From: Bacteroidaceae bacterium
Lineage (GTDB): Bacteria > Bacteroidota > Bacteroidia > Bacteroidales > Bacteroidaceae
Reading direction: 5' to 3'
DNA: 64,000 bases
Assembly (NCBI GenBank): GCA_045660385.1
Contig: JAZRDT010000157.1
Coordinates: 8,079-72,078 of the forward strand
The notes under the pieces were generated by a model. It was not told the origin of the DNA and did no database searches. It saw nothing but the letters and a program-made list of their open reading frames with translations. Made by a program: the position numbers and the translations under genes. How positions within the stretch are numbered: position 1 is the stretch's first letter; every line of letters begins with the position of its first letter. Below are positions 8,615-53,898 of the stretch, piece by piece.

Positions 8615-8651
8615 ATGTTATACCTTATTATATACACTGAGTTAAACGATG

Positions 8652-8659
8652 CAAAGATA
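8652..8659 (-). promoter_or_regulatory. -7 box (TATCTTTG on minus strand) for the metal efflux operon
   Basis: caaagata on the plus strand, 38 nt upstream of start 8614. Confidence 0.55.
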
Positions 8660-18154: not shown

Positions 18155-18159
18155 TCTGC

Positions 18160-33143: not shown

Positions 33144-33148
33144 GCGTT

Positions 33149-33553: not shown

Positions 33554-33573
33554 AAGCGTGTATCTTTATTATA

Positions 33574-33757: not shown

Positions 33758-33766
33758 AAAGACCTG

Positions 33767-35048: not shown

Positions 35049-35189
35049 CATAGCAAAGTGGTATATAGTTGCCTATAAAAAAAGCAGTATGGCAATGCAA
35101 ACTGATCAGAAACAGGACCACACATACTTCCCGGAGCACCGAAATGACTGGATTCCTTGCACTTACATAGAATCCAAAGCCCCAGAGGA

Positions 35190-36758: not shown

Positions 36759-37453
36759 GAATTCCACAAATGATACGGGCCATATTGGCATTAGCTATAC
36801 GTACGATTGTTGCACCCTTCAATCGGTTACGCCATTATTGGAGCATGAAACTCAAATGGTGGGGAAAGCTGCGAATGGCTCCATCGGCATATATCCACCC
36901 TGACTCATACTTTGAAGGGGCAAACTCAATCTGGAACAACTCATACTTCAGCGGACGAATGGGTTATGGGAGTTATATTACACAAGGTTGCCATATCGAA
37001 GGTAATATTGGACGTTTTTGTTCTATTGCATCTGATGTAAAGGTCTGTATCGGGACGCACCCGATAGAAGCACCTTATGCTACCACCTCGCCCATGTTCT
37101 ATTCTCTACGGAAACAGACAGGAACCACTTTTGCACAAAAGCAGATGTTTGATGAATTACGTCCACCAATAACCATAGGAAATGACTGTTGGATAGGACA
37201 AGGCGCATTGCTTGTAGGAGGAGTAAGCATAGGAGACGGAAGCGTTGTCCTGGCAGGAGCTGTCGTAACAAAGGATGTACCTCCCTATGCCATAGTGGGC
37301 GGAGTACCTGCCAAACTTATAAAGTGCAGATATGATGCTGATACTATAAACTTTTTATTGGAAAAGGAGTGGTGGAATAAACCTATTGAATGGCTAAAGG
37401 AGAACAGCAGCCTGCTAAACGATATTGACAAACTTAAAGAGGCCCTATCTTAA
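36755..37453 (+). CDS. Hexapeptide-repeat O-acetyltransferase
   Basis: Left-handed beta-helix repeats [51 protein letters not shown] overlap with wzx. Confidence 0.85.
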
Positions 37454-37455
37454 GG

Positions 37456-38297
37456 ATGAAACTATCAATAATCACCATCAACTACAATAATCGCGAAGGA
37501 CTACGAAAGACCATCGAGAGCGTAGTGAATCAAACCTGTCAGGACTTTGAATACATCGTCATCGATGGCGGATCTACTGATGGAAGTGCTGAGGTAATCA
37601 AAGAATTTGAAGATAAAATAGACTCATGGGTAAGTGAGCCCGACAAAGGCATCTACAATGCAATGAACAAGGGAATAAAAAAGCTTTAGGGGAATATTGT
37701 ATTTTCATGAACTCTGGAGATTACTTCTACTCACCAGACACAATAGAAACAGTATTCTCAAAACAAGTGACTACGGATATTATTTGCGGTAACACACACA
37801 CTAACAAATTAAAAGTTCCGCCTCAAGAAATCACGTTGGATTACCTGTTCAACAACTCAATCTGCCATCAATGCGCATTTATACGTACATCTTTAATGAA
37901 AAAATATGGGTACGATGAAAATTATAAAATAGTCGCTGACCGCAAATTCTTTATTCAAGCACTAATCCTCGACAATTGTTCTTACCAAGCAGTTAATGTT
38001 GATGTTGTAAACTATGACATCAATGGGTTCAGTGCAACAAACCCCGTTTTATCTCGTTTAGAATACGACAAAGTCTTAGAAGAGCTAATACCCCAAAGAA
38101 TTAGGTTGGATTATGGACGAAAATATAAAGGTGAGCTTTATGGCGACACATGGTATGATAAATTGTTCATTGAAATACGAAATAGAAAATACAAAAGACC
38201 CATATATACATTGGTTACATGCTTATTACGGGTTATTGCTATTTTTCACAAGAGTGCCAAGTTTATAAAACTATACCCATACAACATTCATGATTAG
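37456..38297 (+). pseudogene. Family 2 glycosyltransferase interrupted by a -1 frameshift in an A6 tract
   Basis: Track ORFs 37456-37689 and 37707-38297 are the two halves. Adding one A to the run at 37677-37682 restores ...[26 protein letters not shown]..., a normal GT2 junction. Confidence 0.8.
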
Positions 38298-38375
38298 TTA
38301 ATAATAACAATTGCAACAACATCAAATAATCAGAAATATTATAGTCTTATAGAGGCTATTAGCATTCATCATATT

Positions 38376-39437
38376 ATGAGAATATTAGTTACAGGTGCAG
38401 CTGGATTTATAGGCAGTAATGTTATCAAAGGAATATTCGAACAGCTAACAGACGCAGTGGTAGTTGGAATTGACAATCTAAATGACTATTACGATGTTAG
38501 TCTAAAGGAAGAGAGGTTATCTCATCTTATTAAGCACCCAAATTTCACCTTCATTAAAGGAGATATTGCAGACAGCCCCCTCATTAAAAGCACGTTTGCT
38601 AACATCAAGCCACAAATCGTAATAAATCTTGCAGCACAAGTTGGAGTTCGCAATAGCATAAGCAACCCTGACGCCTATATAGAATCTAATATTATCGGAT
38701 TCTACAACATCCTTGAAGCGTGCAGAAAGTCCTATGAACAATATGAGAATGGAGTGCAACATCTTGTATATGCATCATCATCATCTGTTTATGGTTCAAA
38801 TGGGAAGATTCCATATTCAACAGATGACAAGGTAGACAATCCCGTTTCACTATATGCAGCCACAAAAAAAAGCAATGAACTTATGGCTCATGCTTATAGT
38901 AAGTTATACAACATACCATCGACTGGACTACGATTTTTCACAGTATATGGACCTGCAGGACGTCCTGACATGGCATATTTTGGTTTTACAGACAAACTGA
39001 TTAAAGGAGATAAGATTCAGATATTCAACTATGGTAAATGCAAAAGAGACTTTACTTACATTGACGACATCGTAGAAGGAATAATTCGCGTAATGCAGAA
39101 GCCACCAGTTAAATCTACCGGCGATGATGGTCTTCCTATACCTCCATACGCGGTATACAACATTGGGAACAATAATCCTGAGAATCTTTTGGACTTTGTC
39201 ACCATTCTTCAAGAAGAGTTAGTACGTGTAGGCTTGCTCCCATCCGATTACGACTTTGAGGCTCATAAAGAGCTAGTACCTATGCAGCCTGGTGATGTTC
39301 CTATAACCTTTGCAGACACATCTACACTAGAAAGAGATTTCGGATTTAAACCATCAACGTCTCTTCGTGAAGGGCTTCGCTCTTTTGTAGAATGGTATGC
39401 TGCCAAGTGTAAATTATCAACATTATATTATGATTAG
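38376..39437 (+). CDS. NAD-dependent sugar-nucleotide epimerase (UDP-glucuronate 4-epimerase-like)
   Basis: MRILVTGAAGFIGSNV..GIDNLNDYYDVSLKEERL...YAATKK...: SDR extended family, pattern of the CapI/WbnF group. Confidence 0.8.
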   Translation: MRILVTGAAGFIGSNVIKGIFEQLTDAVVVGIDNLNDYYDVSLKEERLSHLIKHPNFTFIKGDIADSPLIKSTFANIKPQIVINLAAQVGVRNSISNPDAYIESNIIGFYNILEACRKSYEQYENGVQHLVYASSSSVYGSNGKIPYSTDDKVDNPVSLYAATKKSNELMAHAYSKLYNIPSTGLRFFTVYGPAGRPDMAYFGFTDKLIKGDKIQIFNYGKCKRDFTYIDDIVEGIIRVMQKPPVKSTGDDGLPIPPYAVYNIGNNNPENLLDFVTILQEELVRVGLLPSDYDFEAHKELVPMQPGDVPITFADTSTLERDFGFKPSTSLREGLRSFVEWYAAKCKLSTLYYD

Positions 39438-39443
39438 ACTTTT

Positions 39444-40382
39444 ATGCAGACAATACCGATAGTTCTTACTTTTGATGACAACATGTCACTCCCCGCTGCA
39501 GTATGTATTTCTTCAATCCTAACCTCAGCTCAGGAAGATACTTTTTTCGATTTTTACATACTATATTCAGATCATGAGCCACATATTGTCGGACTGGACA
39601 AAATTAAATCCAGATTTTCCAATATAGACATTAAATATAGGTCGGTAGGAAATATCTTTAAAAACGCATACGAAATAAGAGGCATAACGACTGCAGCATA
39701 TTATAGACTATTAGCAGCAGACCTAATTCCTGAATATGACCAAGTAATTTATGCAGATGTCGACATGATTTTCAGGATGGATTTATCCTCGTTGTATAAG
39801 ATGGATTTAGATGATAATTATTTGGGTGCAGTGTTTGCTTTGGGACTCAATACTGAAGAAAAAGCACGACAATATATAGCGTCTATCGGTATAGAACCAG
39901 GAAATTACTTTCTTTCCGGTTTCTTACTCATGAATTTATCAAGGATTAGAAAAGATAATCTGACCAATAAATTCATAGAGTTATCCAAGAACAATTATAA
40001 GTATCAGGACCAAGATATAATAAACATTATATGTAAAGACAAAATCATATCAATTCCTTATGTTTATTCTATGACAGTTGCTGCATTCGAAGCAGTCTCA
40101 ATGAATACGGATTTGTTACATACCAAATATATGAGTAACCCATTTGATGATGACCCTTTACTATACAGCAACATACATTACAATGGCGTTAAACCTTGGA
40201 AAGATTGGTGTCCGAATTTAGATCAGTGGTGGGAGTGCTATAGAAAATCACCAATATATGACCCTGCGCTCTATTTTTCATTTTTCAATAACAAACTAGA
40301 GTTTCTTGATCAGCTTAGTCTACTTAAAAGGATCAAAATTCTATTGCGTTATTTTGTTTTTGGACGAAAAAAGCAAATTTAA
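39444..40382 (+). CDS. Family 8 glycosyltransferase
   Basis: IPIVLTFDDNMSLPAAVCISSIL, ..AAYYRLLAADLIP.., DxD at YADVDMIF, ..GFLLMNL... Confidence 0.85.
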   Translation: MQTIPIVLTFDDNMSLPAAVCISSILTSAQEDTFFDFYILYSDHEPHIVGLDKIKSRFSNIDIKYRSVGNIFKNAYEIRGITTAAYYRLLAADLIPEYDQVIYADVDMIFRMDLSSLYKMDLDDNYLGAVFALGLNTEEKARQYIASIGIEPGNYFLSGFLLMNLSRIRKDNLTNKFIELSKNNYKYQDQDIINIICKDKIISIPYVYSMTVAAFEAVSMNTDLLHTKYMSNPFDDDPLLYSNIHYNGVKPWKDWCPNLDQWWECYRKSPIYDPALYFSFFNNKLEFLDQLSLLKRIKILLRYFVFGRKKQI

Positions 40383-40388
40383 CAATCC

Positions 40389-41315
40389 ATGAAAAACAAA
40401 GAAAATTCCATAAGCTGGACATTTACAAATTTTTGCTGGCTTATTATTCAGCGTGTTTTTCCTGCGAAAATGTATCTCTCTTTGAGATATAGGATAATTT
40501 TTGGACGTTGGATAAATTGGGATAATCCGAAAACATTTACAGAAAAGTTACAATGGCTTAAGTTATACTATTATGGTCGAAAAGAGGCTGTCTTGGTTGA
40601 CAAAATTAAGGTAAAAGAATACATAAAAGGTATTATCGGTGATGAGTATATTATACCTACGATTGGTACGTGGGAAGATGCAAACAACATACAATTCGAC
40701 TCGCTACCATGCGAATATGTCCTAAAATGCAATCATGATTCCGGATCAGTACATTTTCAAAAAGAAGACGCACCTATAAACAGAGCAGAGACAATAAAAG
40801 AATTAAATAAAGTTCTAAAAACAAATTATTATTGGACGGGGAGGGAGACACCGTATCGCTATGTAAAACCAAGAGTATTTGCCGAACAACTAATCCGGAG
40901 TGATGTAAAGGGAGGACTAAGAGATTACAAATTCTTTTGTTTTAATGGTGAACCAAAGGTGTTTAAAATTGACTTCAATCGCTTTAACAACCATAAAACT
41001 AATTATTTTGATATTGATGGGAATTTATTGCCTTTTGGAGAAGCTGACTATCCCCCAATACCAGATATAAACATAGAAGTTCCACAGAACTTACCTGAAA
41101 TGGTTGAGTTAGCAAGAAAGATTGCAGTCGGCCTTCCTTTTGCCAGAATAGATTTATACAACACTAATGGTAAAATCCTGTTTGGGGAAATTACACTATT
41201 TCCGACTTCTGGATTTGGAAGATTTACAGATGATAAATGGGATAGACTTTTGGGTAGTTGGCTTGAGCTACCTAATAAATTAAATAATTTGACATGGAAC
41301 CTACAATATCAGTAA
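40389..41315 (+). CDS. TupA-like ATP-grasp amidoligase
   Basis: ...NPKTFTEKLQWLKLYYYGRKEAVLVDKIKVKEYI...VLKCNHDSG...DYKFFCFNGEP... matches my recollection of the TupA-type ATP-grasp family found in glycan loci. Confidence 0.7.
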   Translation: MKNKENSISWTFTNFCWLIIQRVFPAKMYLSLRYRIIFGRWINWDNPKTFTEKLQWLKLYYYGRKEAVLVDKIKVKEYIKGIIGDEYIIPTIGTWEDANNIQFDSLPCEYVLKCNHDSGSVHFQKEDAPINRAETIKELNKVLKTNYYWTGRETPYRYVKPRVFAEQLIRSDVKGGLRDYKFFCFNGEPKVFKIDFNRFNNHKTNYFDIDGNLLPFGEADYPPIPDINIEVPQNLPEMVELARKIAVGLPFARIDLYNTNGKILFGEITLFPTSGFGRFTDDKWDRLLGSWLELPNKLNNLTWNLQYQ

Positions 41316-42271
41316 TAACCCCCATCTACAATGTTAAACAATTCGTTCACAAATGCGTAGAGTCATTGATGTCACAAACATTTGAAGATGTAGAATATAT
41401 CTTCGTGAATGATGCTTCGAATGACGGAAGTATTGACATTGTAAGAACAATTATAGAGAAGTATCCAACTAAAAATGCAAAAATTATTAACCATCAAGAA
41501 AATCGCGGTTTACCAGCTTCAAGAAAGACTGGATTCGAAGCTGCCAACGGCAAGTATATATTCAACTGCGATGGTGATGATTGGGTAGAATCAACTTTGT
41601 TGGAAAAGCTATATAATGCTATAAAAACTTATAATGCAGACTATTCATACTGCGATTTCTTTTTAAGTTATGAGAAAACTGAACGATACATGAAATGTCC
41701 TGCATTTACAACTCCTGATGAGGCCTTGCGAAAAGGTTATCTTAGCGGGGCTGCAAAATATAATGTTTGGAACAAACTAATCAAGAAAGACCTATATGAA
41801 GGAGTAGTGTTTCCTGTTGATCACAAAAGAGGAGGAGAGGATATGATTATGTTAGGCATACTATCAAAGGCCAAGTCAATAGCCTATGTGCCAGAAGCGT
41901 TATATCACTACCTTAAGATTAACACTTCCGCAATATCAGAGGTTTTTTCCCACCAGAGGATAATAGACATTAAGCATAATGCAGATACGGCAATTAGCGT
42001 TCTTCGAGATTCTTATCATGAAGATATAGAAAAGGAAATAGCATTTTTTAAGTTGAACGTAAAACTACCATTTATAATAACTGATGACCCTATTAAATAT
42101 CAGGTATGGAAAGAATGGTATCCAGAAGCCAACAAACATATTTTTGAGAACAAGCACCAGTCCGTCAGAAATAGAATAGTACAATATCTAGCAGCAAAGG
42201 GGATTTTTTGGGCAGTACGATTCTATTATAGATTCACATATAAATTTGTTTATCGATTGATTTACAAATAA
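41294..42271 (+). CDS. Family 2 glycosyltransferase
   Basis: ISVITPIYNVKQFVHKCVESLMSQTFEDVEYIFVNDASNDGS...CDGDDW. Confidence 0.85.
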   Translation: MEPTISVITPIYNVKQFVHKCVESLMSQTFEDVEYIFVNDASNDGSIDIVRTIIEKYPTKNAKIINHQENRGLPASRKTGFEAANGKYIFNCDGDDWVESTLLEKLYNAIKTYNADYSYCDFFLSYEKTERYMKCPAFTTPDEALRKGYLSGAAKYNVWNKLIKKDLYEGVVFPVDHKRGGEDMIMLGILSKAKSIAYVPEALYHYLKINTSAISEVFSHQRIIDIKHNADTAISVLRDSYHEDIEKEIAFFKLNVKLPFIITDDPIKYQVWKEWYPEANKHIFENKHQSVRNRIVQYLAAKGIFWAVRFYYRFTYKFVYRLIYK

Positions 42272-42331
42272 AATCCGTAGATTTTCATTCTTAGTATTTT
42301 TACTAATCCAAGCACAAAGCCCTATAGTATA

Positions 42332-43642
42332 ATGATTAAAACCATTATGATCACACTCTTAGGAGTAATGGTCAGCTTTTACTTTTTCCCCATCGAATTC
42401 ACCTTCTTGCCGGGCATAAACACTAAAATGGCTATGGCTGGATTCGGATTAGTGATTCTGATGTTCCAACTTGCCCGAAAAGAGCAGCCACATATAGATA
42501 AATCAATATTCAACTTATCGATTATTGCCTGCATTATCTCACTGGCTAGCCTCATTGCGGTCACCTATAACGAAACGCCCGATTACACTTACGCAACCTA
42601 TATCGTCAGTATGTGGGTATGGCTCAGCGGTGCATACGTAGTGATTACTCTGATACGTGCTCTACATGGCTATGTATCGGTGGAGTTAGTGTGCAATTAC
42701 TTGATTGCAGTATGTACCGCACAATGCATATCTGCTCTCATGATAGACTCAATACCCGCATTCAAGGAAATTATTGACACTTACGTATCTGGATTTGGAT
42801 TTGTTGACACGAGCAAGATTAGCCACGGCAAACGAATGTATGGTATAGGTGCAGGACTTGATGTTGCTGGGTTAAGATTCTCAGCTGTTTTATGTTGTAT
42901 AGGTTATATTACTAGCCGAATAGCAAATAGCAACAACAAGAGCAAGATTTGGATATACCTTGTATGTTTTGTAATCATCGGACTGGTTGGAAGTATGATA
43001 GCACGTACAACAATTATTGGAGTAGGCTTAGCCTTATGCTATTGGACAATCAGGCTCTTTACTGCAGAGACCACACAAGAGAAGAAACACCTATGGGGAT
43101 GGTTGCTCGGCATTATCATCGTATCACTACTTATCATCGTACCATTATATAACAACAATCCGAATTTTAAGGCTAACACTCGATTTGCGTTTGAGGGATT
43201 CTTCAGTCTTGTCGAGAAGGGACGTTGGGAGGTACGCTCCAACGAGATTCTGTTAAACATGTACGTATTCCCCGACAACTTGAAAACCTGGCTGATAGGT
43301 GACGGATACATAGAAAACCCTATAAAGACAGATCCCTATTATACAGGAGAAGTTATTGGCGGTTATTATATGGGGACTGATGTGGGATATCTGCGCTTTA
43401 TCTTCTATTTCGGCGTCTTTGGTTTATTGGCTTTGATTGCATTCTTCATCACCATTACAAGAAATTGCATCAAACAATTCCCAACACAAAGAGCTCTGTT
43501 CATCCTAATCCTTGCCGTAAACCTGATAGGCTGGTTCAAAGTATCTACAGATATATTCCTTGCATTCGCTCCCTTCCTCCTCATCTGCAGAGATGAATAC
43601 TACGAATTAGAGCAACATATTGACTCCAACATTTCCGCATGA
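42332..43642 (+). CDS. wzy: Wzy-type O-antigen/capsule repeat-unit polymerase
   Basis: 436 aa, ~10-12 TM segments with one large loop and no soluble-domain motifs. Its position inside the GT block fits the call. Confidence 0.65.
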   Translation: MIKTIMITLLGVMVSFYFFPIEFTFLPGINTKMAMAGFGLVILMFQLARKEQPHIDKSIFNLSIIACIISLASLIAVTYNETPDYTYATYIVSMWVWLSGAYVVITLIRALHGYVSVELVCNYLIAVCTAQCISALMIDSIPAFKEIIDTYVSGFGFVDTSKISHGKRMYGIGAGLDVAGLRFSAVLCCIGYITSRIANSNNKSKIWIYLVCFVIIGLVGSMIARTTIIGVGLALCYWTIRLFTAETTQEKKHLWGWLLGIIIVSLLIIVPLYNNNPNFKANTRFAFEGFFSLVEKGRWEVRSNEILLNMYVFPDNLKTWLIGDGYIENPIKTDPYYTGEVIGGYYMGTDVGYLRFIFYFGVFGLLALIAFFITITRNCIKQFPTQRALFILILAVNLIGWFKVSTDIFLAFAPFLLICRDEYYELEQHIDSNISA

Positions 43643-44769
43643 AAATCGTATACTGCATAGCCGGCACCTATAATTCCGGTGGAATGGAACGTGTGCTTGC
43701 CAATAAAGCAAATTGGTTTGCACACCAAGGCCATGACGTTACGATAATAACAACCGAACAAAAAGGCAGGAAGCCATTCTTCTCATTAGACAAGCGGATT
43801 GTTTGTCATGATTTGGGAATCGGGTACGAAGAGAATAATGGAGGGACTTTTCTCAACAAAGTGCTACATTACCCCTTCAAGCAATACAGACATCGGAAAA
43901 GGCTGACCAAACTGCTTGAAGAGATAAAGCCCGACATCACTGTTTCGATGTTTTGCAACGACGTATCGTTCCTCCCGAAAATAAAAGATGGCAGTAAAAA
44001 AGTATTGGAGATTCACTTTTCCAAATTCAAACGTCTACAATATGCGCGTAAGGGGCTATGGCGCTTGGCTGATATCTATCGCAACAAGCGGGAAGAGCAA
44101 CAAGTAAGATGCTTCGACCGTTTTATCGTACTTACTGAGGAGGACAAGAGATACTGGGGGAACCTGCCCAACATAGGGGTTATACCCAATGCACGGACAT
44201 TCAATCCGACAACAATCGCCACGCTTGACACCTGCCGAATAGTTGCTATTGGGCGCTACACTCATCAGAAAGGATTTGAGCGACTCATCGAGGCATGGAA
44301 CAATATATGTAGGCAACACCCACATTGGAAACTTGACATCATAGGAGAAGGAGAAGAACAGCCGAAGCTACAAGCACTTATTGACCATTACAATATAGCA
44401 GAAAGCACTACATTGTGTCCTCCTACAAATAATATGGATGCAGTCTATAGAAGCGCCGCAATCATAGCAATGTCATCACGATATGAGGGATTGCCCATGA
44501 TTATGCTTGAGGCACAAGCTTATGGAATCCCCATCGTAGCATTCAACTGCAAATGTGGGCCCATGGATATAATAACCGATGGCATTAACGGATACTTAGT
44601 AGATGAAGGGAATTGCGAAAAATTGGCTCAAAAACTTGCCACTCTCATAGAAGACGATAAACTACGTGTTCAAATGGGTAAGGAAGCCCATATAAATTCG
44701 AACAGATACTCTGAAGAGAACATTATGCGCATGTGGACTACACTTTTTCAACAACTGAAAGGCGAATGA
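43639..44769 (+). CDS. Family 4 (GT-B) glycosyltransferase
   Basis: MKIVYCIAGTYNSGGMERV... and C-terminal ..SSRYEGLPMIMLEAQAYGIPIVAF.. (E-x7-E motif). ATGA overlap with wzy. Confidence 0.85.
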   Translation: MKIVYCIAGTYNSGGMERVLANKANWFAHQGHDVTIITTEQKGRKPFFSLDKRIVCHDLGIGYEENNGGTFLNKVLHYPFKQYRHRKRLTKLLEEIKPDITVSMFCNDVSFLPKIKDGSKKVLEIHFSKFKRLQYARKGLWRLADIYRNKREEQQVRCFDRFIVLTEEDKRYWGNLPNIGVIPNARTFNPTTIATLDTCRIVAIGRYTHQKGFERLIEAWNNICRQHPHWKLDIIGEGEEQPKLQALIDHYNIAESTTLCPPTNNMDAVYRSAAIIAMSSRYEGLPMIMLEAQAYGIPIVAFNCKCGPMDIITDGINGYLVDEGNCEKLAQKLATLIEDDKLRVQMGKEAHINSNRYSEENIMRMWTTLFQQLKGE

Positions 44770-45869
44770 AAACGATTGTAGTATCAGCTGTAAACATACG
44801 TAAAGGCGGAACTCTTACTATTTTACGAGGGTGCCTCAAGTATCTGTCAGCATTGGCTCTTGACAGAAAGTTCCGAGTGGTAGCACTCGTACATAAACGA
44901 GAGTTATGCAACTATAAAGGCATTGAATACATTGAAATGCCTACCATCATAAAAGGTTGGAGCAGGCGACTCTGGTGCGAATATGTAACCATGTACCGCA
45001 TATCCAAAAAGTTAGCTCCAGTTGACCTATGGTTGTCGCTACACGATACAACCCCTAGGGTGGAAGCCAAACACAGAGCCGTATACTGCCAGACCTCATT
45101 CCCTTTTCTTAAGCTAAAGTTAAACGATTGGCGATTTGACTTCAAAATTGGCTTATTCAGACTTTTTACGCAAATAGCTTACCGTATCAACATTAGAAAG
45201 AACGATTATCTGATAGTGCAGGCAGAATGGCTTCGCAAACGCTTCACGCGAATGTTCCGGTTACCTCACGAACGATTTATTATTGCACCACCTAGTAGGA
45301 ACAATGAATATCGGCCAACCACTAGCTCTAAAAATAACATATATACCTTTATCTATGTAGCAACACCCGATTGCCATAAGAATTTCGAACTGATATGTCA
45401 GGCTGCAAAACTCCTTGAAGATGAAATAGGAGAGAATCAGTTCAAGGTAATATTGACAATAAATGGAACAGAAAACAAATATGCCCAATGGATTCATAGA
45501 CAATGGGGTAAAGTGGGATCTTTAGTATTCCATGGATTAATGGACAAAGAGACTCTTTTTCATCACTACGCAACAAGCGACTGTTTGATATTCCCCTCAC
45601 GCATTGAGACTTGGGGACTACCAATCACTGAATTCATGCCATACAATAAACCGATGCTGCTCGCTGACCTTCCCTATGCACATGAAACTGCTGCCGGAGC
45701 TAACCAAGTGGCATTCTTCAACCCTGAAAGTCAGGATGAACTTAAAATGAGGATGTTACAATTAATCTATAATGATACCACAAGCCTTCAAAACGTATCG
45801 AAACAAGATATACAAGAACCAAAAGCAATGAATTGGAGTGAACTGTTTGCACGACTAATAGCTGACTAA
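44766..45869 (+). CDS. GT-B fold glycosyltransferase (family 1/4-like)
   Basis: MKTIVVSAVNIRKGGTLTIL... with C-terminal ..FPSRIETWGLPITEF... I prefer the ATG at 44766 (ATGA overlap) to the track start at 44733. Confidence 0.7.
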   Translation: MKTIVVSAVNIRKGGTLTILRGCLKYLSALALDRKFRVVALVHKRELCNYKGIEYIEMPTIIKGWSRRLWCEYVTMYRISKKLAPVDLWLSLHDTTPRVEAKHRAVYCQTSFPFLKLKLNDWRFDFKIGLFRLFTQIAYRINIRKNDYLIVQAEWLRKRFTRMFRLPHERFIIAPPSRNNEYRPTTSSKNNIYTFIYVATPDCHKNFELICQAAKLLEDEIGENQFKVILTINGTENKYAQWIHRQWGKVGSLVFHGLMDKETLFHHYATSDCLIFPSRIETWGLPITEFMPYNKPMLLADLPYAHETAAGANQVAFFNPESQDELKMRMLQLIYNDTTSLQNVSKQDIQEPKAMNWSELFARLIAD

Positions 45870-45881
45870 TACTATTACGAC

Positions 45882-46154
45882 ATGAGAACTAAAGAGAACC
45901 TGAAACTACGCAAGATAGGGAACAAATACATGATTGTTGACACACTCACCGAAGAGATAAATATGGTAGATGTGTATACAATGAACGAGACCGCTGCCTT
46001 GCTTTGGAAGACATTTGCTAAACGCGACTTCACAGAAGAAGATATGGTAAAAGTTCTATGTGAAGAATACAACGTGACACAGGAGAAAGCTGCAGGCGAC
46101 GTTGAGAATCTGGTAAAAGAATGGATCAGCTACGGGCTTGCATATAACGATTAA
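45882..46154 (+). CDS. PqqD-family protein (RiPP-recognition-element fold)
   Basis: 90 aa: ..LKLRKIGNKYMIVD....VYTMNETAALLWKTF...FTEEDMVKVLCEEYNV..EKAAGDVENLVKEW is the PqqD/RRE pattern (beta-strands, then a winged-helix-like bundle). Confidence 0.65.
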   Translation: MRTKENLKLRKIGNKYMIVDTLTEEINMVDVYTMNETAALLWKTFAKRDFTEEDMVKVLCEEYNVTQEKAAGDVENLVKEWISYGLAYND

Positions 46155-46174
46155 AAATATTCAATTTCAACAAG

Positions 46175-47233
46175 ATGTATCATATATTTTTCGTATTATT
46201 AAGAGCTGGACTTTGGGGGAAAGCACCTGAGGATCTATCCGAATTCCCCTTAAACAGAGAGAGATGGAACAAGCTATTTGAAATAGCAAAAAAACAAACC
46301 GTAACGGGTATCGTCTACCATGGTGTCACTATGCTTCCTGAGAGGTTTATGCCACCGCAAGAGCTAATGATACGCTGGGTGGCCGAGGTTGAGCGCATCG
46401 AGCAGAACAATCATAAGACCAATATAGCACTGCAAAAATTGCTCCGCTTATTCAGAGATGAATGCCTGCGTCCTATCGTGCTCAAAGGACAAAGTGTAGC
46501 TGCAATGTATGAAACTCCTTCATTACGCGAATGTGGCGATATTGACATCTTTTTTGATAGTCAGGAAGATGCAAATGATGCTTTAGCTATACTCAAAGAA
46601 AAAGGCATTACCTATGAGCGGCATGCTGACCAAAGCATCAGCTACGTATGGGAAGGAGTTGTAGTAGAACATCATACGGTACTGTTCGATTTGCACAGAC
46701 CTAAAAGTAGGAAATATGCCAATAAGTTTATCAAGAAATTCCGACATATGAGAATTCCTTTACACGAACATACGAAGATGACCGTTTTGGCACCCATGCC
46801 TTACCTAATCACGTTGAACACTCACATACTAAAACACACATTAGGAATGGGCGTTGGATTACGTCAGCTCTGTGACTTAGCGCGAGCATACTACTATCTC
46901 AACGGAAAAGTAGAGCATCACACGATGCGCGACACATTCAAGACCCTAGGACTTACCAAATGGAGCAAGCTACTGCATGCCTTTATCGTAAAGCACATTG
47001 GCTTACCTTGGCAATATCAGCCATACATTTCATTGCAGGATATAGACACAGCCCCCCTATTCAGCATTATCAGAGAAAGTGGAAACTTTGGACAACACGC
47101 CAAAGGTTCAGCTTCGCGTTCGCCTCTAAAAACAGCGCTACGCTTTTGGAAGAGAAAAAGATTTGCATGGAAATATGCCTTCAAGGAATATCTATGGATA
47201 ATGCTTAGACTTACAAAGGGTAGAATAAAATGA
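46175..47233 (+). CDS. Uncharacterised nucleotidyltransferase-family protein (pol-beta-like NTase)
   Basis: ...IVLKGQSVAAMYETPSLRECGDIDIFFD... (G-x-S ... D-x-D NTase core) in a 352-aa protein of the type annotated 'nucleotidyltransferase family protein'. Confidence 0.65.
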   Translation: MYHIFFVLLRAGLWGKAPEDLSEFPLNRERWNKLFEIAKKQTVTGIVYHGVTMLPERFMPPQELMIRWVAEVERIEQNNHKTNIALQKLLRLFRDECLRPIVLKGQSVAAMYETPSLRECGDIDIFFDSQEDANDALAILKEKGITYERHADQSISYVWEGVVVEHHTVLFDLHRPKSRKYANKFIKKFRHMRIPLHEHTKMTVLAPMPYLITLNTHILKHTLGMGVGLRQLCDLARAYYYLNGKVEHHTMRDTFKTLGLTKWSKLLHAFIVKHIGLPWQYQPYISLQDIDTAPLFSIIRESGNFGQHAKGSASRSPLKTALRFWKRKRFAWKYAFKEYLWIMLRLTKGRIK

Positions 47234-48090
47234 GATATAAGGTAGCAAACCATTTATTTGAGGTAGTACTACCATCTGAAGCAAACGCAGAACGACTATT
47301 ACCCTCATTCCGTCCATTTATATGCATAGATGAGGATGAGACAGGACCTTTACTGTTTCTATTTGACACCACATCACCTTATCCTGGAGAAGAGGGTGTA
47401 CTTGTTGAGGAGTCAGAAAACGACATGGGGCACATCACCATATGGAAGACCACACAGGGGTATCGCATTGAGGCAAGGCACACGGTTGCAAACAAACCAC
47501 ATGCCATGACAACCGACAGGGAGTTTCGTTCAATAAAAGCCTCCATACAGTGGGATGATGAGTATGCCTCACAAATACTCTGTTCGATGCTCCGTATTGC
47601 ATTCTCGCAAGCTCTTTTACGCGAAGATGGCATAGGCATACATGCTTCAGCAGTAGGGCATAATGGAGAATGTTTTCTTTTTCTCGGAAAAAGCGGTACG
47701 GGAAAGAGTACCCATGCGTCACTATGGCTACAACACGTAGAGAATTCCGAGCTCATCAATGACGACAATCCTGCCATACGGATCCAAGACGACATAGCCT
47801 ATGCCTATGGAACGCCATGGAGTGGAAAAACACCCTGCTACAAAAACATTGGTCTGCCCATAGCAAAAATTACTCGTCTACAACAAGCTCCAGCCAACAG
47901 TCATAGGTATCTAAGCGAAGTAGAAGCGTTCACTGCTCTACTACCAAGTTGTTCGGCAATAAAACAGGACAACAATCTATACGAAAAGCTCTGTGAGAAA
48001 CTCACATGGTTGGCTGAGCATACAGCTATCGCTTATCTCCAATGCCTACCTAATAAGGAAGCGGTAATGCTGAACAAAGAAACATTGTAG
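47230..48090 (+). CDS. HPr-kinase-like P-loop protein
   Basis: ...GIGIHASAVGHNGECFLFLGKSGTGKSTHASLWLQ...ELINDDNPAI... resembles the HprK C-terminal catalytic domain. ATGA overlap with the NTase gene. Confidence 0.65.
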   Translation: MRYKVANHLFEVVLPSEANAERLLPSFRPFICIDEDETGPLLFLFDTTSPYPGEEGVLVEESENDMGHITIWKTTQGYRIEARHTVANKPHAMTTDREFRSIKASIQWDDEYASQILCSMLRIAFSQALLREDGIGIHASAVGHNGECFLFLGKSGTGKSTHASLWLQHVENSELINDDNPAIRIQDDIAYAYGTPWSGKTPCYKNIGLPIAKITRLQQAPANSHRYLSEVEAFTALLPSCSAIKQDNNLYEKLCEKLTWLAEHTAIAYLQCLPNKEAVMLNKETL

Positions 48091-48153
48091 AGACATTACA
48101 AAAATTAACATATAAAAAAACATAGGCATATATATCTATCTGAAAAAAAATTG

Positions 48154-48161
48154 TAATTTTG
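48154..48161 (+). promoter_or_regulatory. Internal -7 box (TAATTTTG) ahead of the GT4-wza-wzc block
   Basis: Lies in the only sizeable intergenic gap of the locus (48091-48210), 50 nt upstream of ATG 48211. Confidence 0.5.
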
Positions 48162-48210
48162 CACGAATATCTCACTAAAAAGTTCTCATTGTAAAGATGT
48201 ATACAAGAAG

Positions 48211-49332
48211 ATGAAGGTATTGCAATTAGGTAAATTCTTTCCTATAAAAGGAGGAGTAGAAAAGGTTGAATATGATCTGATGAAAGGCTTGTCAGAGCAT
48301 GGGATTGATTGCGATATGTTGTGTACTTCAGCAAAGAAAAGTGAGCAACAAATAAACGACCATGCCAAGTTGTTCTGCGTCCGCACTTGGACAACGATTG
48401 CAGGAACAACCATAGCGCCATCGATGATAACAAGATTATGGCGTACATGTCGAGAATATGACATAATTCATGTGCATCATCCCGACCCAATGGCTTGTTT
48501 GGCATTATTCTTCTCCAGATATAGAGGCAAAGTTATACTTCATTGGCATAGCGACATAATTAGACAAAAAAAACTATTAGGATTGTATCGTCCATTGCAA
48601 CGTTGGTTGATACAACGGGCCAACATTATTGTAGGTACTACGCCAATCTACATCAAAGAGTCGGAAGAACTTAAAGACGCGCAACATAAGACCGCACATC
48701 TACTCATCGGCATCGAAGAAATCGCCCATAACTTTATTGGGGCACAAAAACTTCACGAGTTATACAATGGCCGAAAGATTGTGTTCTCGTTAGGACGATT
48801 GGTCCCTTACAAGGGCTATAGCTATCTTATAGAAGCTGCTCAACACTTACCTGACGATTATGTTGTAGCAATCGGAGGTACAGGTCCATTATACGAAGAA
48901 TTGAACAGACTGATTATTGACAAAGGTCTAGAAAACAAGGTGAAATTGTTAGGATTTGTCAAAGACGAAGAAGTTTCGGCCTATTACACCGCCTGCAAGA
49001 TATTCGTTCTACCCTCGATACAGAAAACAGAGGCTTTTGGAATTGTGCAAATTGAAGCCATGAGTGGTGGGAAGCCTGTAGTAGCTACAACAATACCCGG
49101 ATCTGGAACATCATGGGTCAATGCACACGGCATATCAGGATTAAATGTAACACCTAAGCAATCCAAAGAGTTGGCCGAAGCCATACTTGAAATTACGAAA
49201 GACGAAGACACCTATAAAAGGTTCTGTAAGGATGCACGTCTACGCTATGAGAACGAATTCACTAAAGAACAAATGATAAAAGGAGCAATAAATATTTACA
49301 ACACATTAAAAGATACAAAGGAACATGCATAA
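48211..49332 (+). CDS. Family 4 (GT-B) glycosyltransferase
   Basis: MKVLQLGKFFPIKGGVEKV... and ..LPSIQKTEAFGIVQIEAMSGGKPVVAT... Confidence 0.85.
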   Translation: MKVLQLGKFFPIKGGVEKVEYDLMKGLSEHGIDCDMLCTSAKKSEQQINDHAKLFCVRTWTTIAGTTIAPSMITRLWRTCREYDIIHVHHPDPMACLALFFSRYRGKVILHWHSDIIRQKKLLGLYRPLQRWLIQRANIIVGTTPIYIKESEELKDAQHKTAHLLIGIEEIAHNFIGAQKLHELYNGRKIVFSLGRLVPYKGYSYLIEAAQHLPDDYVVAIGGTGPLYEELNRLIIDKGLENKVKLLGFVKDEEVSAYYTACKIFVLPSIQKTEAFGIVQIEAMSGGKPVVATTIPGSGTSWVNAHGISGLNVTPKQSKELAEAILEITKDEDTYKRFCKDARLRYENEFTKEQMIKGAINIYNTLKDTKEHA

Positions 49333-50149
49333 CTCGTCTATTATAAAGCAAACAAAACGTATACTCTGGCTACAATGCCTAATAGTAACCATAGCCCTTT
49401 CTGGATGTTCGACTCAAAAGGATATCACCTATCTTCAGGACATGGAAATGGGACAATTTTATCCGATTGAACAAAAACATGAACCGACAATACACCGTAA
49501 CGACAAATTAAGCATCACAGTAGCCAGTCAAAACACACCCGAGTTGGCTATCCCCTTCAATATCCAAAATGGAGCATACAATGTTGGGGAAGATGGAAGA
49601 ATCGACACCTCAGCTCCCGCAACTAAAGAAAAGGGATACCGTGTCGACATTGACGGAAATATCGATTTCCCTATGTTAGGTAAGTTACATGTAGAAGGAC
49701 TCACCATCAGTGAAGCTACCGACCTGATAAAAAATCGCATCATAGAAGGAGGATACATCAATAGTCCTCTTGTTATGGTAGACATCATGAATTTCAAGTA
49801 TACCGTGTTAGGAGCTGTCGGACACAATGGTGTCATGACGGCCGACGGTGATAGAGTGACTCTACTCGAGGCCATAGCCAATGCAGGAGACCTGAGTGCC
49901 AATGCTGCTATAAATCGCGTTGCTGTCATACGCGAAGTGGGAGAGACGCGTCAAGTATTCTTTCACGATTTAAGAAGCAAGGATCTGTTCGACTCTCCCT
50001 GCTTTTACCTGCAACAAAACGACATTGTATACGTCGAACCCAAATATAAGAGGATTGACAAGGAAGAGCGCCTGATACAATATGGTACACTGATGTTAAG
50101 CATAGCCTCAACACTCAGTACCATGATGTGGTGGATACGACAAAACTAA
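49325..50149 (+). CDS. wza: Wza-type polysaccharide export outer-membrane lipoprotein
   Basis: Lipobox ALSGC/STQ. Poly_export motif ..YRVDIDGNIDFPMLGKLHVEGLTISE.. plus an SLBB-like segment. Confidence 0.85.
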   Translation: MHNSSIIKQTKRILWLQCLIVTIALSGCSTQKDITYLQDMEMGQFYPIEQKHEPTIHRNDKLSITVASQNTPELAIPFNIQNGAYNVGEDGRIDTSAPATKEKGYRVDIDGNIDFPMLGKLHVEGLTISEATDLIKNRIIEGGYINSPLVMVDIMNFKYTVLGAVGHNGVMTADGDRVTLLEAIANAGDLSANAAINRVAVIREVGETRQVFFHDLRSKDLFDSPCFYLQQNDIVYVEPKYKRIDKEERLIQYGTLMLSIASTLSTMMWWIRQN

Positions 50150-50176
50150 CGTAATAACACTGATAATTCCGACCAA

Positions 50177-52555
50177 ATGAATAAATCTATGAACAAGAAG
50201 GAGCAAGGATTAAACATAGTAGACTTGTTCTTCTATCTACTCTCCAAATGGCCCTGGTTCCTATTGGGTATAGTATTATGTGGTGGTGGAGCCTACCTTA
50301 AGTATGCGCATACACCTTTCACCTATTACCAATCAGCAACTGTCATCATCAAGGACCCGACCAACAAGAACACCTATTCTGCCGGATTTGACCGATACGA
50401 CAACCTGGTTAATAAAGTTAATGTTGCCAACGAAATTCTACAATTCCGTTCTAAAAGGCTCATGCGTGAGACGATATTACGCACGAAGGCAAACATAAAC
50501 TATCAGACAAAAATTAAGTTCAGATGGATAGAATTGTATAACAGTTCGCCCATAGCAGTAACCTTTCCTGATGCTATGCGTGATAGCCATGTTACATTCA
50601 CCGTAACACCTAAAGATAGTGCTATGATTCAATTATCACATCTAGCAGGTGACGATGACGAACAAGTGTACACTGTAAATGTAAATGACACAATCATCCT
50701 TCACGGACAGAGAATCATCATTGCACCGACTAAATATTATGGTGCTCAATGGTATAACAAGGATATCGAGATAGAGAAATTGCCCTTAGAATGGGTAGCC
50801 GACAGATATCGTAGTGCGGTAGGTATACGCCAAGAAGAGGATGAGGCTTCGATTCTCAAATTGGCCTTAAAAGACAACAATGCATTAAGAGCACAGAACA
50901 TACTTAACACCATGGTGATTGTATACAATGACATCACGGTAGACGACAAGAACCTAATGGTGCAAAATACAACAAACTTCATCAACGGACGACTGGCAGT
51001 AATTGAGAAAGAGTTAGGAGGCGTGGAAGATGAAATTGTAAGTTTCAAGAGGGAGAATCAAATCATTGATTTAGGTTCTGCTGCAGGACAATATACAAGC
51101 GAATCTCAGAAATACAGTTCAGAGGTATTGGAAACGAAGACCCAGTTGCAAGTTGCACAATACATTAAAGATTACCTTACTGACCCATCCAAGGCTACCG
51201 AACTGATTCCCGCAAATACGGGTATCAGCGACATGAATATTGAAAGCCAAATCATGCAATACAATACAATGAAGATGAAACGCGACAAGCTGCTTGACGA
51301 CAGCAGTGAGCGAAATCCCATTGTTGAAGGGCTGAATGGTTCATTGGCTGCCATGCGACAAAGCATCATAAGCGCCGTAGACAATATGATCTTAAGCCTC
51401 AACGTAAGACTTAACGAGGTGCAAAAACGTGAAAACGACGCACAAACACGCGTACAGGCTATACCCACCAAACAAAAACAAATGCTGTCAATTGAACGTC
51501 AGCAAAAAATTAAGGAGAGCCTCTACATGTTCCTTCTCAACAAACGTGAGGAGAACGCACTATCCCAGGCTATGGTGAACGATAACGCTTGGATTATTGA
51601 TAGTGCTGAAGGAAGCATGTCGCCTATTGCCCCAACAAGGAATCGCATCCTGTTCGTAGGCATCTTAATTGGTATAGCAATACCTATGGGCATATTCCTG
51701 GCAATCCTCTTCCTTGATACGCGTGTTCATCACCGCAAAGACATAGAGAAAGAGGTTAATATACCTTTTATCGGAGATGTTCCCGTCGATTCAGACCTCA
51801 TGAAAGCAGGAAAGAAAAACCGTAATGCCATCGTTGTAAGTGAAGAGGGTACGGATATGTTATCAGAAGCCTTCCGCATATTGCGCACCAACTTGGCCTT
51901 CTTGACCAAAGGAAATCCCGAGACAAAGGTTCTAATGACTACATCGTTCAATGTTAGCGCCGGTAAAACATTCATTTCAAGAAACTTGGCGATGAGTTTA
52001 GCATTTGCCAACAAGAAGGTTTGTATGGTCGACCTTGACTTGAGAAAGGGTACTCTTACAGGTCACGAGAACAGAAGTATCAAGGGTGTGACAAACTATC
52101 TTATTGACCCGACAATGACACTTGACGATATCATAAAGACAGACCACATATGCAACAAGGTTGACATTATCCCTGCAGGAACAATGGCTCCCAACCCCGC
52201 GGAGCTTCTCATGAGTGAACGTCTGGACGATATGATAAAGGAACTGAAAACACGATATGACTATATCATTGTAGATAGTGTTCCCGTAGGTATCGTTGCC
52301 GATGCCAGTATCACCAACCGCATTGCAGACCTCACACTCTTCATCCTACGCATAGGAAAACTCGACAAGCGCCAACTACCTGACCTTGAAGAATTATACG
52401 AAGGAAAGAAACTGACCAATATGGCCCTGATACTCAATGGAAGCAATCCACGTAAACAGCAATATGGCTATGGTTATGGATACGGATATGGTTACGGTTA
52501 TGGATATGGCTATGGTTATGGGAACGAAAAGAAAAAAAGTTGGCTGAAAATCTAA
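50177..52555 (+). CDS. wzc: Wzc-type chain-length determinant / tyrosine autokinase
   Basis: N-terminal Wzz domain with 2 TM segments and a coiled coil. C-terminal P-loop kinase (TSFNVSAGKTFIS, ..VDLDLRKG.., IIVDSVP). Tyr-rich tail (YG)x10. Confidence 0.88.
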   Translation: MNKSMNKKEQGLNIVDLFFYLLSKWPWFLLGIVLCGGGAYLKYAHTPFTYYQSATVIIKDPTNKNTYSAGFDRYDNLVNKVNVANEILQFRSKRLMRETILRTKANINYQTKIKFRWIELYNSSPIAVTFPDAMRDSHVTFTVTPKDSAMIQLSHLAGDDDEQVYTVNVNDTIILHGQRIIIAPTKYYGAQWYNKDIEIEKLPLEWVADRYRSAVGIRQEEDEASILKLALKDNNALRAQNILNTMVIVYNDITVDDKNLMVQNTTNFINGRLAVIEKELGGVEDEIVSFKRENQIIDLGSAAGQYTSESQKYSSEVLETKTQLQVAQYIKDYLTDPSKATELIPANTGISDMNIESQIMQYNTMKMKRDKLLDDSSERNPIVEGLNGSLAAMRQSIISAVDNMILSLNVRLNEVQKRENDAQTRVQAIPTKQKQMLSIERQQKIKESLYMFLLNKREENALSQAMVNDNAWIIDSAEGSMSPIAPTRNRILFVGILIGIAIPMGIFLAILFLDTRVHHRKDIEKEVNIPFIGDVPVDSDLMKAGKKNRNAIVVSEEGTDMLSEAFRILRTNLAFLTKGNPETKVLMTTSFNVSAGKTFISRNLAMSLAFANKKVCMVDLDLRKGTLTGHENRSIKGVTNYLIDPTMTLDDIIKTDHICNKVDIIPAGTMAPNPAELLMSERLDDMIKELKTRYDYIIVDSVPVGIVADASITNRIADLTLFILRIGKLDKRQLPDLEELYEGKKLTNMALILNGSNPRKQQYGYGYGYGYGYGYGYGYGYGNEKKKSWLKI

Positions 52556-52606
52556 AAAATATATGATAAAAGCGCATTGTTTAGATAATTTATAACAATT
52601 TATCAT

Positions 52607-52614
52607 TAACTTTG
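52607..52614 (+). promoter_or_regulatory. -7 box (TAACTTTG) for the OmpA-family gene
   Basis: 49 nt upstream of ATG 52663. Confidence 0.55.
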
Positions 52615-52662
52615 CGTCGATAATCGTCGAACTATAAGAATATCAACACAATCGAGAAAGAT

Positions 52663-53898
52663 ATGAAAAAGTATTTATTGACAGTTGCTTTAGCGGCAAT
52701 CGGTATCGTAGGTTATGCCGATGATACGACAAGAAACTCTGCAGACTTTACCGAAGAGGTGTACTACAACGATTCTAAAGGCTATAGCGTACAGACCAAT
52801 AGTTTTTGGAAGAATTGGAATTTAAGCATAGGTGCTGGTGCACAAACCTATTTTGGAGACCACAACAAACAATTACTATGGAAGAACCGAATCACACCAG
52901 CCTTTGATGTAGCCTTAGGCAAGTGGTTCACACCAGGCATTGGTGTACGCGGTGTTGCTAGTGGTTATGCACTGAAGGGAGCCACACAGAATGGTGCATT
53001 CTCTACTGGCGAGCTTATCACGGAGAAGCCCTATGCAGGATATTATTTGAGCTATCAAGAATTTAATTACTTGCATGCACACCTCGATGTAATGCTCAAC
53101 ATGACAAATCTTTGCTGTGGATTCAAAGAAGAACGCATCTATAATATTATTCCTTATTTCGGATTTGGTTGGTCTGCAGCTCTTGAAAATAGCAACAGAC
53201 TTCCCGAAGACATTACTCCTGGACGTGAAGTTAGCGCAAATATCGGTTTAATCAATTCTTTCCGTTTGAATCGTCTGTTTGACCTCAACATTGACGTTCG
53301 CGGCGCATACATACAGGACCGCTTCGACGGTGAAACTGGCGGACGATATGGCGAAGGTCTTTTGTCCGCTACAGCCAACTTGGTTTGGAAGATTGGTGGC
53401 AACACATGGGAACGCAGCAAGACTATCGTTCGATATGACAACCGCACCATCAACGAGTTGCGTGATATGATGGATCAGTTGAGTCGCGACAACGAAGAAT
53501 TGCAGAAGGCTTTGGATGACTGCAACAAGGAAAAGGCTGAGGCTGCTGCCAAGAAGATTGCTGTAGTAGCTCCTAACCTCGTAACCTTCAAGATTAATAA
53601 GAGCAACCTTTCTAAGGAGGCACGCGCTAACTTGGGTCTCTTGGCTGAGGTTATCAAGGAGAACGATTCGAATGTTGTATACACTATCACTGGCTACGCA
53701 GATGCAGCAACAGGCAACAAGGAAATCAATGACCGTTTGAGTAAGGAGCGTGCGCAAGCCGTTTATGACTGTCTCGTGAACGAGTTTGGAGTTAACCCCG
53801 ACCAACTCCGTATGGATTATAAGGGTGGTGTAGAGAATATGTTCTACGATGATCCCGCACTGAGCCGCGCAGTAATCACCCGTGGTGACCTGAAATAA
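52663..53898 (+). CDS. OmpA-family outer membrane protein (beta-barrel, coiled coil, OmpA_C)
   Basis: Signal peptide. C-terminal ..ITGYADAATGNKEINDRLSKERAQAVYDCL.. peptidoglycan-binding domain. Confidence 0.85.
   Translation: MKKYLLTVALAAIGIVGYADDTTRNSADFTEEVYYNDSKGYSVQTNSFWKNWNLSIGAGAQTYFGDHNKQLLWKNRITPAFDVALGKWFTPGIGVRGVASGYALKGATQNGAFSTGELITEKPYAGYYLSYQEFNYLHAHLDVMLNMTNLCCGFKEERIYNIIPYFGFGWSAALENSNRLPEDITPGREVSANIGLINSFRLNRLFDLNIDVRGAYIQDRFDGETGGRYGEGLLSATANLVWKIGGNTWERSKTIVRYDNRTINELRDMMDQLSRDNEELQKALDDCNKEKAEAAAKKIAVVAPNLVTFKINKSNLSKEARANLGLLAEVIKENDSNVVYTITGYADAATGNKEINDRLSKERAQAVYDCLVNEFGVNPDQLRMDYKGGVENMFYDDPALSRAVITRGDLK

Follow-up and report, generated by a model that had tools for sequence, protein, structure and literature searches.

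The clusters that make the phosphorylated lasso peptides, namely those of paeninodin (pade), pseudomycoidin (psm) and Bradymonas (bsf), with their components A, B1, B2, C, K, N and D, are the closest described relatives of the gene set analysed here. PqqD domains are the peptide-binding recognition elements of pathways for peptides that are made by the ribosome and modified after translation (RiPPs), and homologues of HPr kinase reportedly phosphorylate lasso precursors in paeninodin-type clusters, where a similar family of nucleotidyltransferases (NTases) is said to co-occur. Lasso B1 proteins bind a YxxPxL motif in the leader of the precursor, and BsfB1 strongly speeds phosphorylation of the precursor BsfA by the kinase BsfK (PMC10368454). 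In the psm cluster, PsmN puts one or two hexoses on the phospho-Ser made by PsmK, and its D134A/D136A mutant is inactive (PMC6993621). Here we describe three adjacent genes, for a PqqD-type protein, an NTase and an HPr-kinase-like protein, in a 64,000-nucleotide stretch of the genome of a Bacteroidaceae bacterium (contig JAZRDT010000157.1, assembly GCA_045660385.1). This whole stretch is referred to as the window, and coordinates are those of the window unless a locus number is given. On balance, the trio is probably the tailoring core of a RiPP-like maturation module, related to lasso B1/K/N and operating without the cyclase and the B2 protease.

According to the list of open reading frames (ORFs), the three genes lie on the forward strand and encode proteins of 90 (PqqD-type; 45882-46154), 352 (PF14907 NTase; 46175-47233) and 286 residues (HPr-kinase/PEPCK-fold kinase; 47230-48090). 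The last two overlap by the ATGA at 47230-47233, and genes for GT4 glycosyltransferases border the set on either side (44733-45869 and 48211-49332, both +; Pfam). An earlier annotation made from the letters alone (the sequence-only reading) had noticed this arrangement, and its coordinates agree with ours.

The 90-residue protein, already described as PqqD-like, matches Pfam PqqD with an E-value of 5.5e-14 (52.7 bits against a cut-off of 23.4); its top NCBIfam match is the lasso PqqD chaperone, below the cut-off. When a profile of 25 orthologues was searched against the PDB, the significant relatives were lasso B1 leader binders only, TfuB1 (6jx3, E 1.4e-7) and TbiB1 (5v1u, E 0.0034), and the next matches were two newer lasso/PqqD chaperone entries with marginal E-values. 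BLASTP aligned the protein with BsfB1 at E 6e-7. These comparisons support its assignment as a stand-alone PqqD-type RiPP recognition element (RRE) resembling lasso B1.

The second protein contains the NTase core motif LKG-x12-RECGDIDIFF, as had been read from the translation, and matches Pfam PF14907 (NTP_transf_5) at E 1.4e-38, with 133.3 bits against a gathering threshold of 31.2. Residues G105, G121, D122, I123, D124, E165 and D172 are invariant across 32 homologues. Foldseek searches with its AlphaFold model (predicted local distance difference test score, pLDDT, of 91.9) returned weak matches, but all of them were to nucleotidyltransferases of Pol-beta type, namely MenT toxins, ANT(2'')-Ia, CCA-adding enzymes and FKRP. 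ANT(2'')-Ia has also been reported as a structural template for PsmN (PMC6993621). Family membership and the modelled fold together support a Pol-beta-type nucleotidyltransferase of PF14907.

The kinase carries the HprK-C-like motif IHASAV..FLGKSGTGKST..LINDDN that had drawn attention to it, and local Pfam and NCBIfam searches returned only weak P-loop matches. Single-sequence searches of the PDB gave marginal or spurious matches only for the kinase, the NTase and the PqqD protein alike, and were uninformative; profiles and models were required. With the AlphaFold model of the kinase (pLDDT 91.7), Foldseek found the C-terminal domain of HprK/P (1kkm, 1kkl, 1jb1) and ATP-PEPCK at E-values of about 3e-6. 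Precomputed matches to PF27840 (‘ScmC’), some of them weak, exist for homologues 63-95% identical to the window kinase. For comparison with a characterised enzyme, bsfK, bsfB1 and bsfA were translated from the published genes (PMC10368454), and hhalign aligned the kinase profile with the lasso kinase BsfK at a probability of 97.4% and an E-value of 1.3e-11. H138, G153, G156, G158, K159, S160, D178 and D179 are invariant in 32 kinase homologues, and the window kinase retains all eight residues of the BsfK motif H148-G163-G166-G168-K169-S170-D186-D187, whose importance was shown by mutagenesis (PMC10368454). The gene is predicted, from the alignments and the model, to encode a ScmC-family P-loop kinase of HPr-kinase/PEPCK fold acting on Ser or Thr of peptides. 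The family is large (>7,775 clusters at 90% identity); the exact window sequence has no record in the contig index. Profile and structure searches of the kind that the sequence-only reading had called for support all three folds, RRE, NTase and kinase, and the analogy with lasso tailoring drawn there is borne out by the BsfK alignment and by the B1-like matches of the PqqD profile.

By analogy, the tailoring set that the trio appears to resemble most in its working is B1/K/N/D, as found in the psm and bsf clusters. What is shared with the pade, psm and bsf sets, taking the trio together with its usual neighbours described below, is a stand-alone PqqD-type RRE, an HprK-fold kinase with the motif H..GxxGxGKS..DD, a nucleotidyltransferase, an ABC exporter and a candidate precursor with a YxxP leader-like motif. 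Unlike the lasso clusters, the module has a serine peptidase of S24/S26 type in the protease slot and a core consisting of a 30-40 residue acidic tail ending in W-D/E, and it is tied to a surface lipoprotein, usually inside a Wza/Wzc polysaccharide locus. Neither the transglutaminase-like cysteine protease (B2) nor the Asn_synthase-type lasso cyclase (C) had a Pfam match in the scanned ORFs of the window or of loci L001, L077, L090, L096 and L097, and membership of a lasso cluster was rejected on these grounds.

Two other described systems pair an HprK-like kinase with a PqqD-family protein. SynChlorMet (ScmC/ScmD; TIGR04248, TIGR04249; PF27840) is one of them, and was rejected as an assignment because the window proteins reach 23 and 21.2 bits where the NCBIfam cut-offs are 125 and 100, respectively, and the window has no radical SAM/SPASM genes. 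To our knowledge, going by the TIGRFAM description, the SynChlorMet cassette, with its two radical SAM/SPASM proteins, includes no NTase and its precursor has not been identified. The other is HPr-rel-A, comprising HprK-related kinase A (TIGR04352) and a PqqD family chaperone (TIGR04353). The sequence-only reading had mentioned such a cassette, and the models do exist, but the window proteins fall far below their NCBIfam cut-offs (11.5 against 200 and 16.9 against 35 bits). By these scores the trio is the same kind of thing as HPr-rel-A, not a member of it. Searches of the accessible full-text literature found no description of this cassette in polysaccharide loci, of PF14907 in polysaccharide loci, or of the peptide family introduced below.

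A kinase scan using one genome per species gave at least 596 confirmed matches, of which the best 80 loci were surveyed; ORFs were called in each and searched with the window proteins, with upstream flanks of only about 10 kb for L001-L087. Apart from one metagenome bin labelled Rickettsiales, the 80 belong to Bacteroidales, Sphingobacterium and Pedobacter, and many of the named hosts are gut and rumen Bacteroidales. The three genes do recur together in other genomes, a point on which the sequence-only reading had staked its proposal: 75 of the 80 species loci have a PqqD gene no further than 4 kb from the kinase, and 36 of the 80 contain the NTase. Polysaccharide genes are present in 32 of these 36. 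About 35 species loci share the strikingly constant order GT2-Wzy-GT4-GT4-GT4-(Bac_transf)-PqqD-NTase-kinase-Wza-Wzc-OmpA, which marks this as a polysaccharide locus conserved between families and not as one of the variable capsule islands. A second architecture accounts for the other 44 loci, mostly from Prevotella (listed among L034, L037 and L043-L087; for example L074 8517-11635), with the order rpoD, small secreted protein, kinase, S24-like peptidase, PqqD. Its kinase is 34-39% identical to the window type and it has the same PqqD and S24-like partners; within 10 kb, neither an NTase nor polysaccharide genes nor any relative of the peptide were seen. It is a paralogous ‘type 2’ module. 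Across the survey, the kinase and PqqD are paired outside polysaccharide loci in 45 of 80 cases, 57 of 80 loci have, alongside the kinase, a serine peptidase of S24/S26 type (about 150 residues, with LexA and signal peptidase I as relatives), and an ABC exporter of about 550 residues, of the peptide/bacteriocin/MsbA type, occurs in 16 of 80 (homologue E < 1e-50). These extra genes take different positions: in Pedobacter L040 the order is S24-PqqD-NTase-ABC-kinase-Wza-Wzc, and in the Bacteroides-like L001 and L090 the peptidase and exporter follow OmpA. In L005/L006, whose kinase is 63% identical to that of the window, a gene for a 130-residue bAvd / 23S_rRNA_IVP protein (8357-8749) sits between PqqD and the NTase.

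The sequence-only reading had stressed that neither RiPP machinery nor a precursor lies near the trio. This holds as far as enzymes and near neighbours go, since no RiPP class-defining enzyme was found among the Pfam-scanned ORFs of the 64 kb window and no precursor-like ORF within about 10 kb of the trio, but a candidate precursor is encoded further away. Clustering of intergenic small ORFs across loci yielded one family besides PqqD itself, and its hidden Markov model (HMM), run on six-frame translations of the fetched loci and the window, matched 25 fetched loci and a single window copy at 315-491 (-), with an E-value of 2.4e-13 (2.9e-17 with a larger profile). The corresponding ORF, at 312-491 on the reverse strand with its stop codon at 312-314, encodes a 59-residue candidate precursor peptide, MKTKKLYETPYVEHAVVELEGGFCGSVVQDAPKSEVKTTGHEINEVDFATESWNDGSWE, and is 45 kb from the trio. 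The suggestion that the substrate might be a peptide encoded elsewhere, the last of three options offered by the sequence-only reading, is the one that gained ground, in the form of a family of small proteins with a YxxP leader that is linked to the trio across Bacteroidota and has a copy within the window itself.

Among 136 distinct family sequences, the Tyr, the Pro at +3 and the Glu at +13 are found in every one, so that all have Y-x-x-P; position +5 is T in 82% and V or I in 11%, V(+10) is present in 92% and L or M at +12 in 98%. A patch G-[I/F/L]-[C/M]-x-[A/G]-S follows at +15 to +20. The N-terminus is basic, the acidic tail varies from member to member, with many D, E, G, T, S and N residues and no Cys, and the C-terminus reads [T/S]-W-[D/E]. 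No family member has a signal peptide or hydrophobic signal sequence. The head resembles the YxxPxL leader motif of lasso precursors, an example of which is seen in the BsfA translation (...KLIYKKPQLTY...), and on sequence the division into a conserved head with YxxP and a tail is typical of RRE-bound precursors. An exhaustive profile search of 1.84 billion representatives returned 486 clusters at 50% identity, all of 45-93 residues, and no Pfam or NCBIfam model matches the family. The window peptide is 81% identical to its orthologue in L088/L089, and the ratio of nonsynonymous to synonymous differences (pN/pS) between the window and L088 genes is 0.17 at a pS of 0.69, with values of 0.17-0.63 in the family. 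The ORF is under purifying selection. Its exact product is called as a gene in 37 blocks of a public collection.

The peptide gene is linked both to the trio and to a large lipoprotein. The peptide occurs in 17 of the 36 loci with an NTase and in none of the 44 without (Fisher p = 8.5e-8), where neither regular-expression nor HMM searches found a trace of it. It is encoded just after Wzc in L001, L008, L016, L019, L023, L026, L029, L036, L038, L039, L090, L096 and L097. In canonical loci (for example L001, L090, L091, L096 and L097) the peptide and lipoprotein genes form a pair that is flanked by Wzc and OmpA and begins 3-6 kb downstream from the trio, and in Sphingobacterium L073 the peptide gene is 0.4 kb downstream of PqqD-kinase-NTase. 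In 24 of the 26 places covered by an ORF scan, the peptide gene was directly followed by one for a large protein; these lipoproteins have 565-1096 residues, 20 of the 24 match a lipobox pattern, and others show one upstream of the called start. Pfam identifies the partner as fimbrillin-like (Mfa_like_1) in L008, L090 and L097. The window preserves the 5' part of such a gene at 1-301 (-), running off the window, with the lipobox FVVVAC|QNE read directly from the sequence; its N-terminus is homologous to the 813-residue protein after the L001 peptide gene and 64% identical to the 793-residue lipoprotein of L088. After the peptide-lipoprotein pair, the window's species and several relatives encode a large protein with a CotH domain, which belongs to an atypical kinase family (L088 12677-15400, L092 12689-15418, L096 12523-15105); its counterpart has Melibiase domains in L097 and a PI-PLC-X-like domain in L008.

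A cluster in Proteiniphilum sp. (L077 5122-14392) brings these parts together. Its eight genes encode the peptide, the lipoprotein, a LamininG/Fib_succ surface protein, the kinase, the S24-like peptidase, PqqD, the nucleotidyltransferase and the ABC exporter, and it lies among housekeeping genes, its neighbours being tpiA, folE, a regulator of AraC type and bipA. There is no polysaccharide gene in 20 kb. L077 shows that the module can stand alone, outside polysaccharide loci.

In the window's species the parts are split. A gene for an UpxY-like NusG paralogue (720-1295, +; Pfam NusG E 1.2e-9) is divergent from the peptide gene and its product is 83% identical to the NusG of L088. In L088/L089, the nearest relatives whose arrangement differs, the orthologous NusG gene heads an operon that is collinear with window positions 35157-42271 at 73-88% amino-acid identity, and their copy of the peptide gene is oriented divergently to the operon's head. 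In the window, genes for efflux (RND/MacAB) and housekeeping functions, about 34 kb in all (1391-35100), separate the NusG/peptide pair from the operon start at 35157. The UpxY-like gene in the window is, by this comparison, orphaned from its polysaccharide operon. The same split is found, identically, in four independent assemblies of the species (L092-L095).

The pathway that we propose builds on what was observed directly: the three folds and their catalytic motifs, the homology to BsfK and BsfB1, the existence of the peptide gene and the selective constraint on it, and the linkage of the genes. The PqqD protein would bind the leader-like head of a precursor of 51-94 residues, here the product of 312-491 (-); this head has a basic N-terminus and the motif Y-x-x-P-x-T/V ... 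V-x-L/M-E-x-G-[I/F]-[C/M]. It would then present the precursor to the HprK-fold kinase for phosphorylation of a Ser or Thr, candidates being the conserved Ser about 20 residues past the Tyr and the Thr/Ser at -3 from the C-terminus. By analogy with PsmN, the PF14907 enzyme may add a hexose or a nucleotide to the phosphate. In complete versions of the module, the S24/S26-type peptidase would cut off the leader and the ABC exporter would export the product. Signal-peptidase-type enzymes prefer small residues at -1/-3, and the x-[A/G]-S patch after the head fits such a preference in the S24/S26-type peptidases. The product probably acts with the fimbrillin-like lipoprotein encoded directly after it and, in most Bacteroidales, would also act with the Wza/Wzc export apparatus. 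The constant lipoprotein partner and the embedding among Wza/Wzc genes speak for a cell-surface role linked to the polysaccharide. A more specific extension makes the matured peptide a structural component of the polysaccharide apparatus instead of a free natural product: the NTase would join its phosphate to a polysaccharide sugar or repeat unit, and the phosphodiester-linked conjugate would be held by the fimbrillin-like lipoprotein at the surface. This seems to us rather unlikely. If it were true, a ribosomal peptide would serve as primer, cap or anchor of a bacterial exopolysaccharide.

Several points weigh against this pathway. Binding, the sites of modification, the chemistry of the NTase, leader cleavage, export and the polysaccharide role are all steps that we infer. 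The peptide head has T, V or I in place of the Leu(-12) of lasso leaders, and there is no Thr(-2), the residues ahead of the putative junction being G-[I/F]. Homology of the NTase to PsmN and BsfN is putative, drawn from how the family and PsmN have been described and from structural templates that they have in common. The 45 kb between peptide and trio are fixed in the window's species, and the 64 kb contain no homologue of the S24-like peptidase or of the matching ABC exporter. More widely, 22 of the 36 NTase loci lack the peptidase within 10 kb, and the peptide falls within the fetched flanks in only about half of the 36. Among the surveyed loci, confounding between NTase presence and a polysaccharide context is almost complete, with L077 alone separating the two.

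Since the trio is strictly confined between glycosyltransferases and Wza/Wzc in about 35 species loci, often right after the Bac_transf priming transferase, its substrate might instead belong to the glycan pathway. The kinase would then phosphorylate a repeat unit, a lipid carrier or some sugar, the NTase would attach a nucleotide or phospho-substituent in the manner of LicD and FKRP-type enzymes, and PqqD would be an adaptor only. The Pol-beta-fold FKRP is indeed among the structural matches, and the window lacks the leader peptidase and exporter. We nevertheless give this explanation little credence: the PqqD profile matches peptide-leader binders only, the kinase has the full peptide-kinase motif and aligns to BsfK, L077 has the same enzymes and the peptide with no polysaccharide gene, and the kinase and PqqD pair up outside polysaccharide loci in more than half of the survey (45/80). 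The related proposal of the sequence-only reading, a tie to the TupA-like ATP-grasp enzyme (40389-41315) and a peptide-decorated glycan, did not survive comparison. TupA, GT8 and the epimerase are seen in the window and L088/L089 and are absent from the ORF and phmmer labels of L001-L087 (upstream flanks of only about 10 kb), and on this comparison are specific to the window/L088/L089 lineage.

A different substrate would be a full-length protein, such as the fimbrillin-like lipoprotein, Wzc or OmpA, in which case the small protein would be an accessory that might serve the lipoprotein as chaperone or donor strand. Strand exchange is how type V pilin-like proteins assemble, the large lipoprotein directly follows the small gene nearly everywhere examined, and Wzc and OmpA are constant neighbours of the module. 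However, signal sequences take the lipoprotein, Wza and OmpA out of the cytoplasm, and the trio proteins have none; the small protein has the conserved head, variable tail and YxxP of RRE-bound precursors; and a peptidase with an ABC exporter would suit the export of a small peptide. We consider a protein substrate unlikely, while leaving it some weight. That the trio is a decaying remnant in this genome, perhaps with no current function, we regard as very improbable. The distance of about 34 kb between the UpxY-like and peptide genes and the operon, the missing S24-like and ABC homologues, a frameshifted GT2 gene (37453-38294) and the absence of Bac_transf would all suit such decay. Against this, none of the three trio ORFs is truncated and each keeps all of its invariant residues, the peptide gene has the low pN/pS given above and is identical in sequence across many samples, and the genes missing here may be encoded in another part of the genome.

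A set of RRE, kinase and nucleotidyltransferase has so far been understood only as an accessory to lasso peptides. With a plausible substrate, a complete stand-alone version in L077 and defined motifs, the tailoring pathway favoured here becomes directly testable, and it concerns a common module, given the number of kinase clusters and of species-level genome matches (at least 596). If confirmed, it would make a new class of linear phospho(glyco)peptide and would raise the question of why such a pathway is wired into a conserved Wza/Wzc locus beside a pilin-like lipoprotein.

The polysaccharide locus hosting the trio extends over 35157-53898 (+). The sequence-only reading had called it a Wzx/Wzy locus, and Pfam annotation agrees: besides a weak MatE/Wzx-like protein, it encodes a hexapeptide acyltransferase, an NAD-dependent epimerase, a GT8, the TupA-like ATP-grasp protein, GT2, a putative Wzy, three GT4 enzymes, Wza (Poly_export; 49325-50149, +), Wzc (GNVR plus P-loop; 50177-52555, +) and an OmpA-family protein (52663-53898, +). 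Glycosyltransferases, Wza, Wzc and flippase and polymerase candidates, by which a Wzx/Wzy-dependent locus is recognised, are accordingly all present. The third GT4 gene follows the trio here and precedes it in related loci. A Bac_transf (PF02397) priming transferase, which is present in 35 related loci and directly upstream of PqqD in most of them, was not found in the window. The GT2 gene at 37453-38294 (+), between the hexapeptide acyltransferase and epimerase genes, has a frameshift near 37668-37677 relative to the intact, 286-residue orthologue of L088, to which it is 85% identical on both sides of the break; it is either a pseudogene or a sequencing error.

Outside this locus, the window region 31917-34627 (-) matches L075/L085 in the order of rpoD, a gene for a small secreted protein (33149-33553) and one for a C11 peptidase, with no module there. 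A functional role for the small secreted protein was considered and rejected, as it is simply a conserved neighbour of rpoD. An Rfam scan of the window at the gathering threshold returned nothing beyond one tRNA gene at 18159-18243 (-). Finally, a conserved stretch upstream of htrA, at about 6100-6800 in L037, L043, L050, L063, L065, L066, L074 and L087, gave rise to several small-ORF clusters, on both strands, that are spurious; this suggests that a non-coding RNA, not a protein, is encoded and conserved there.

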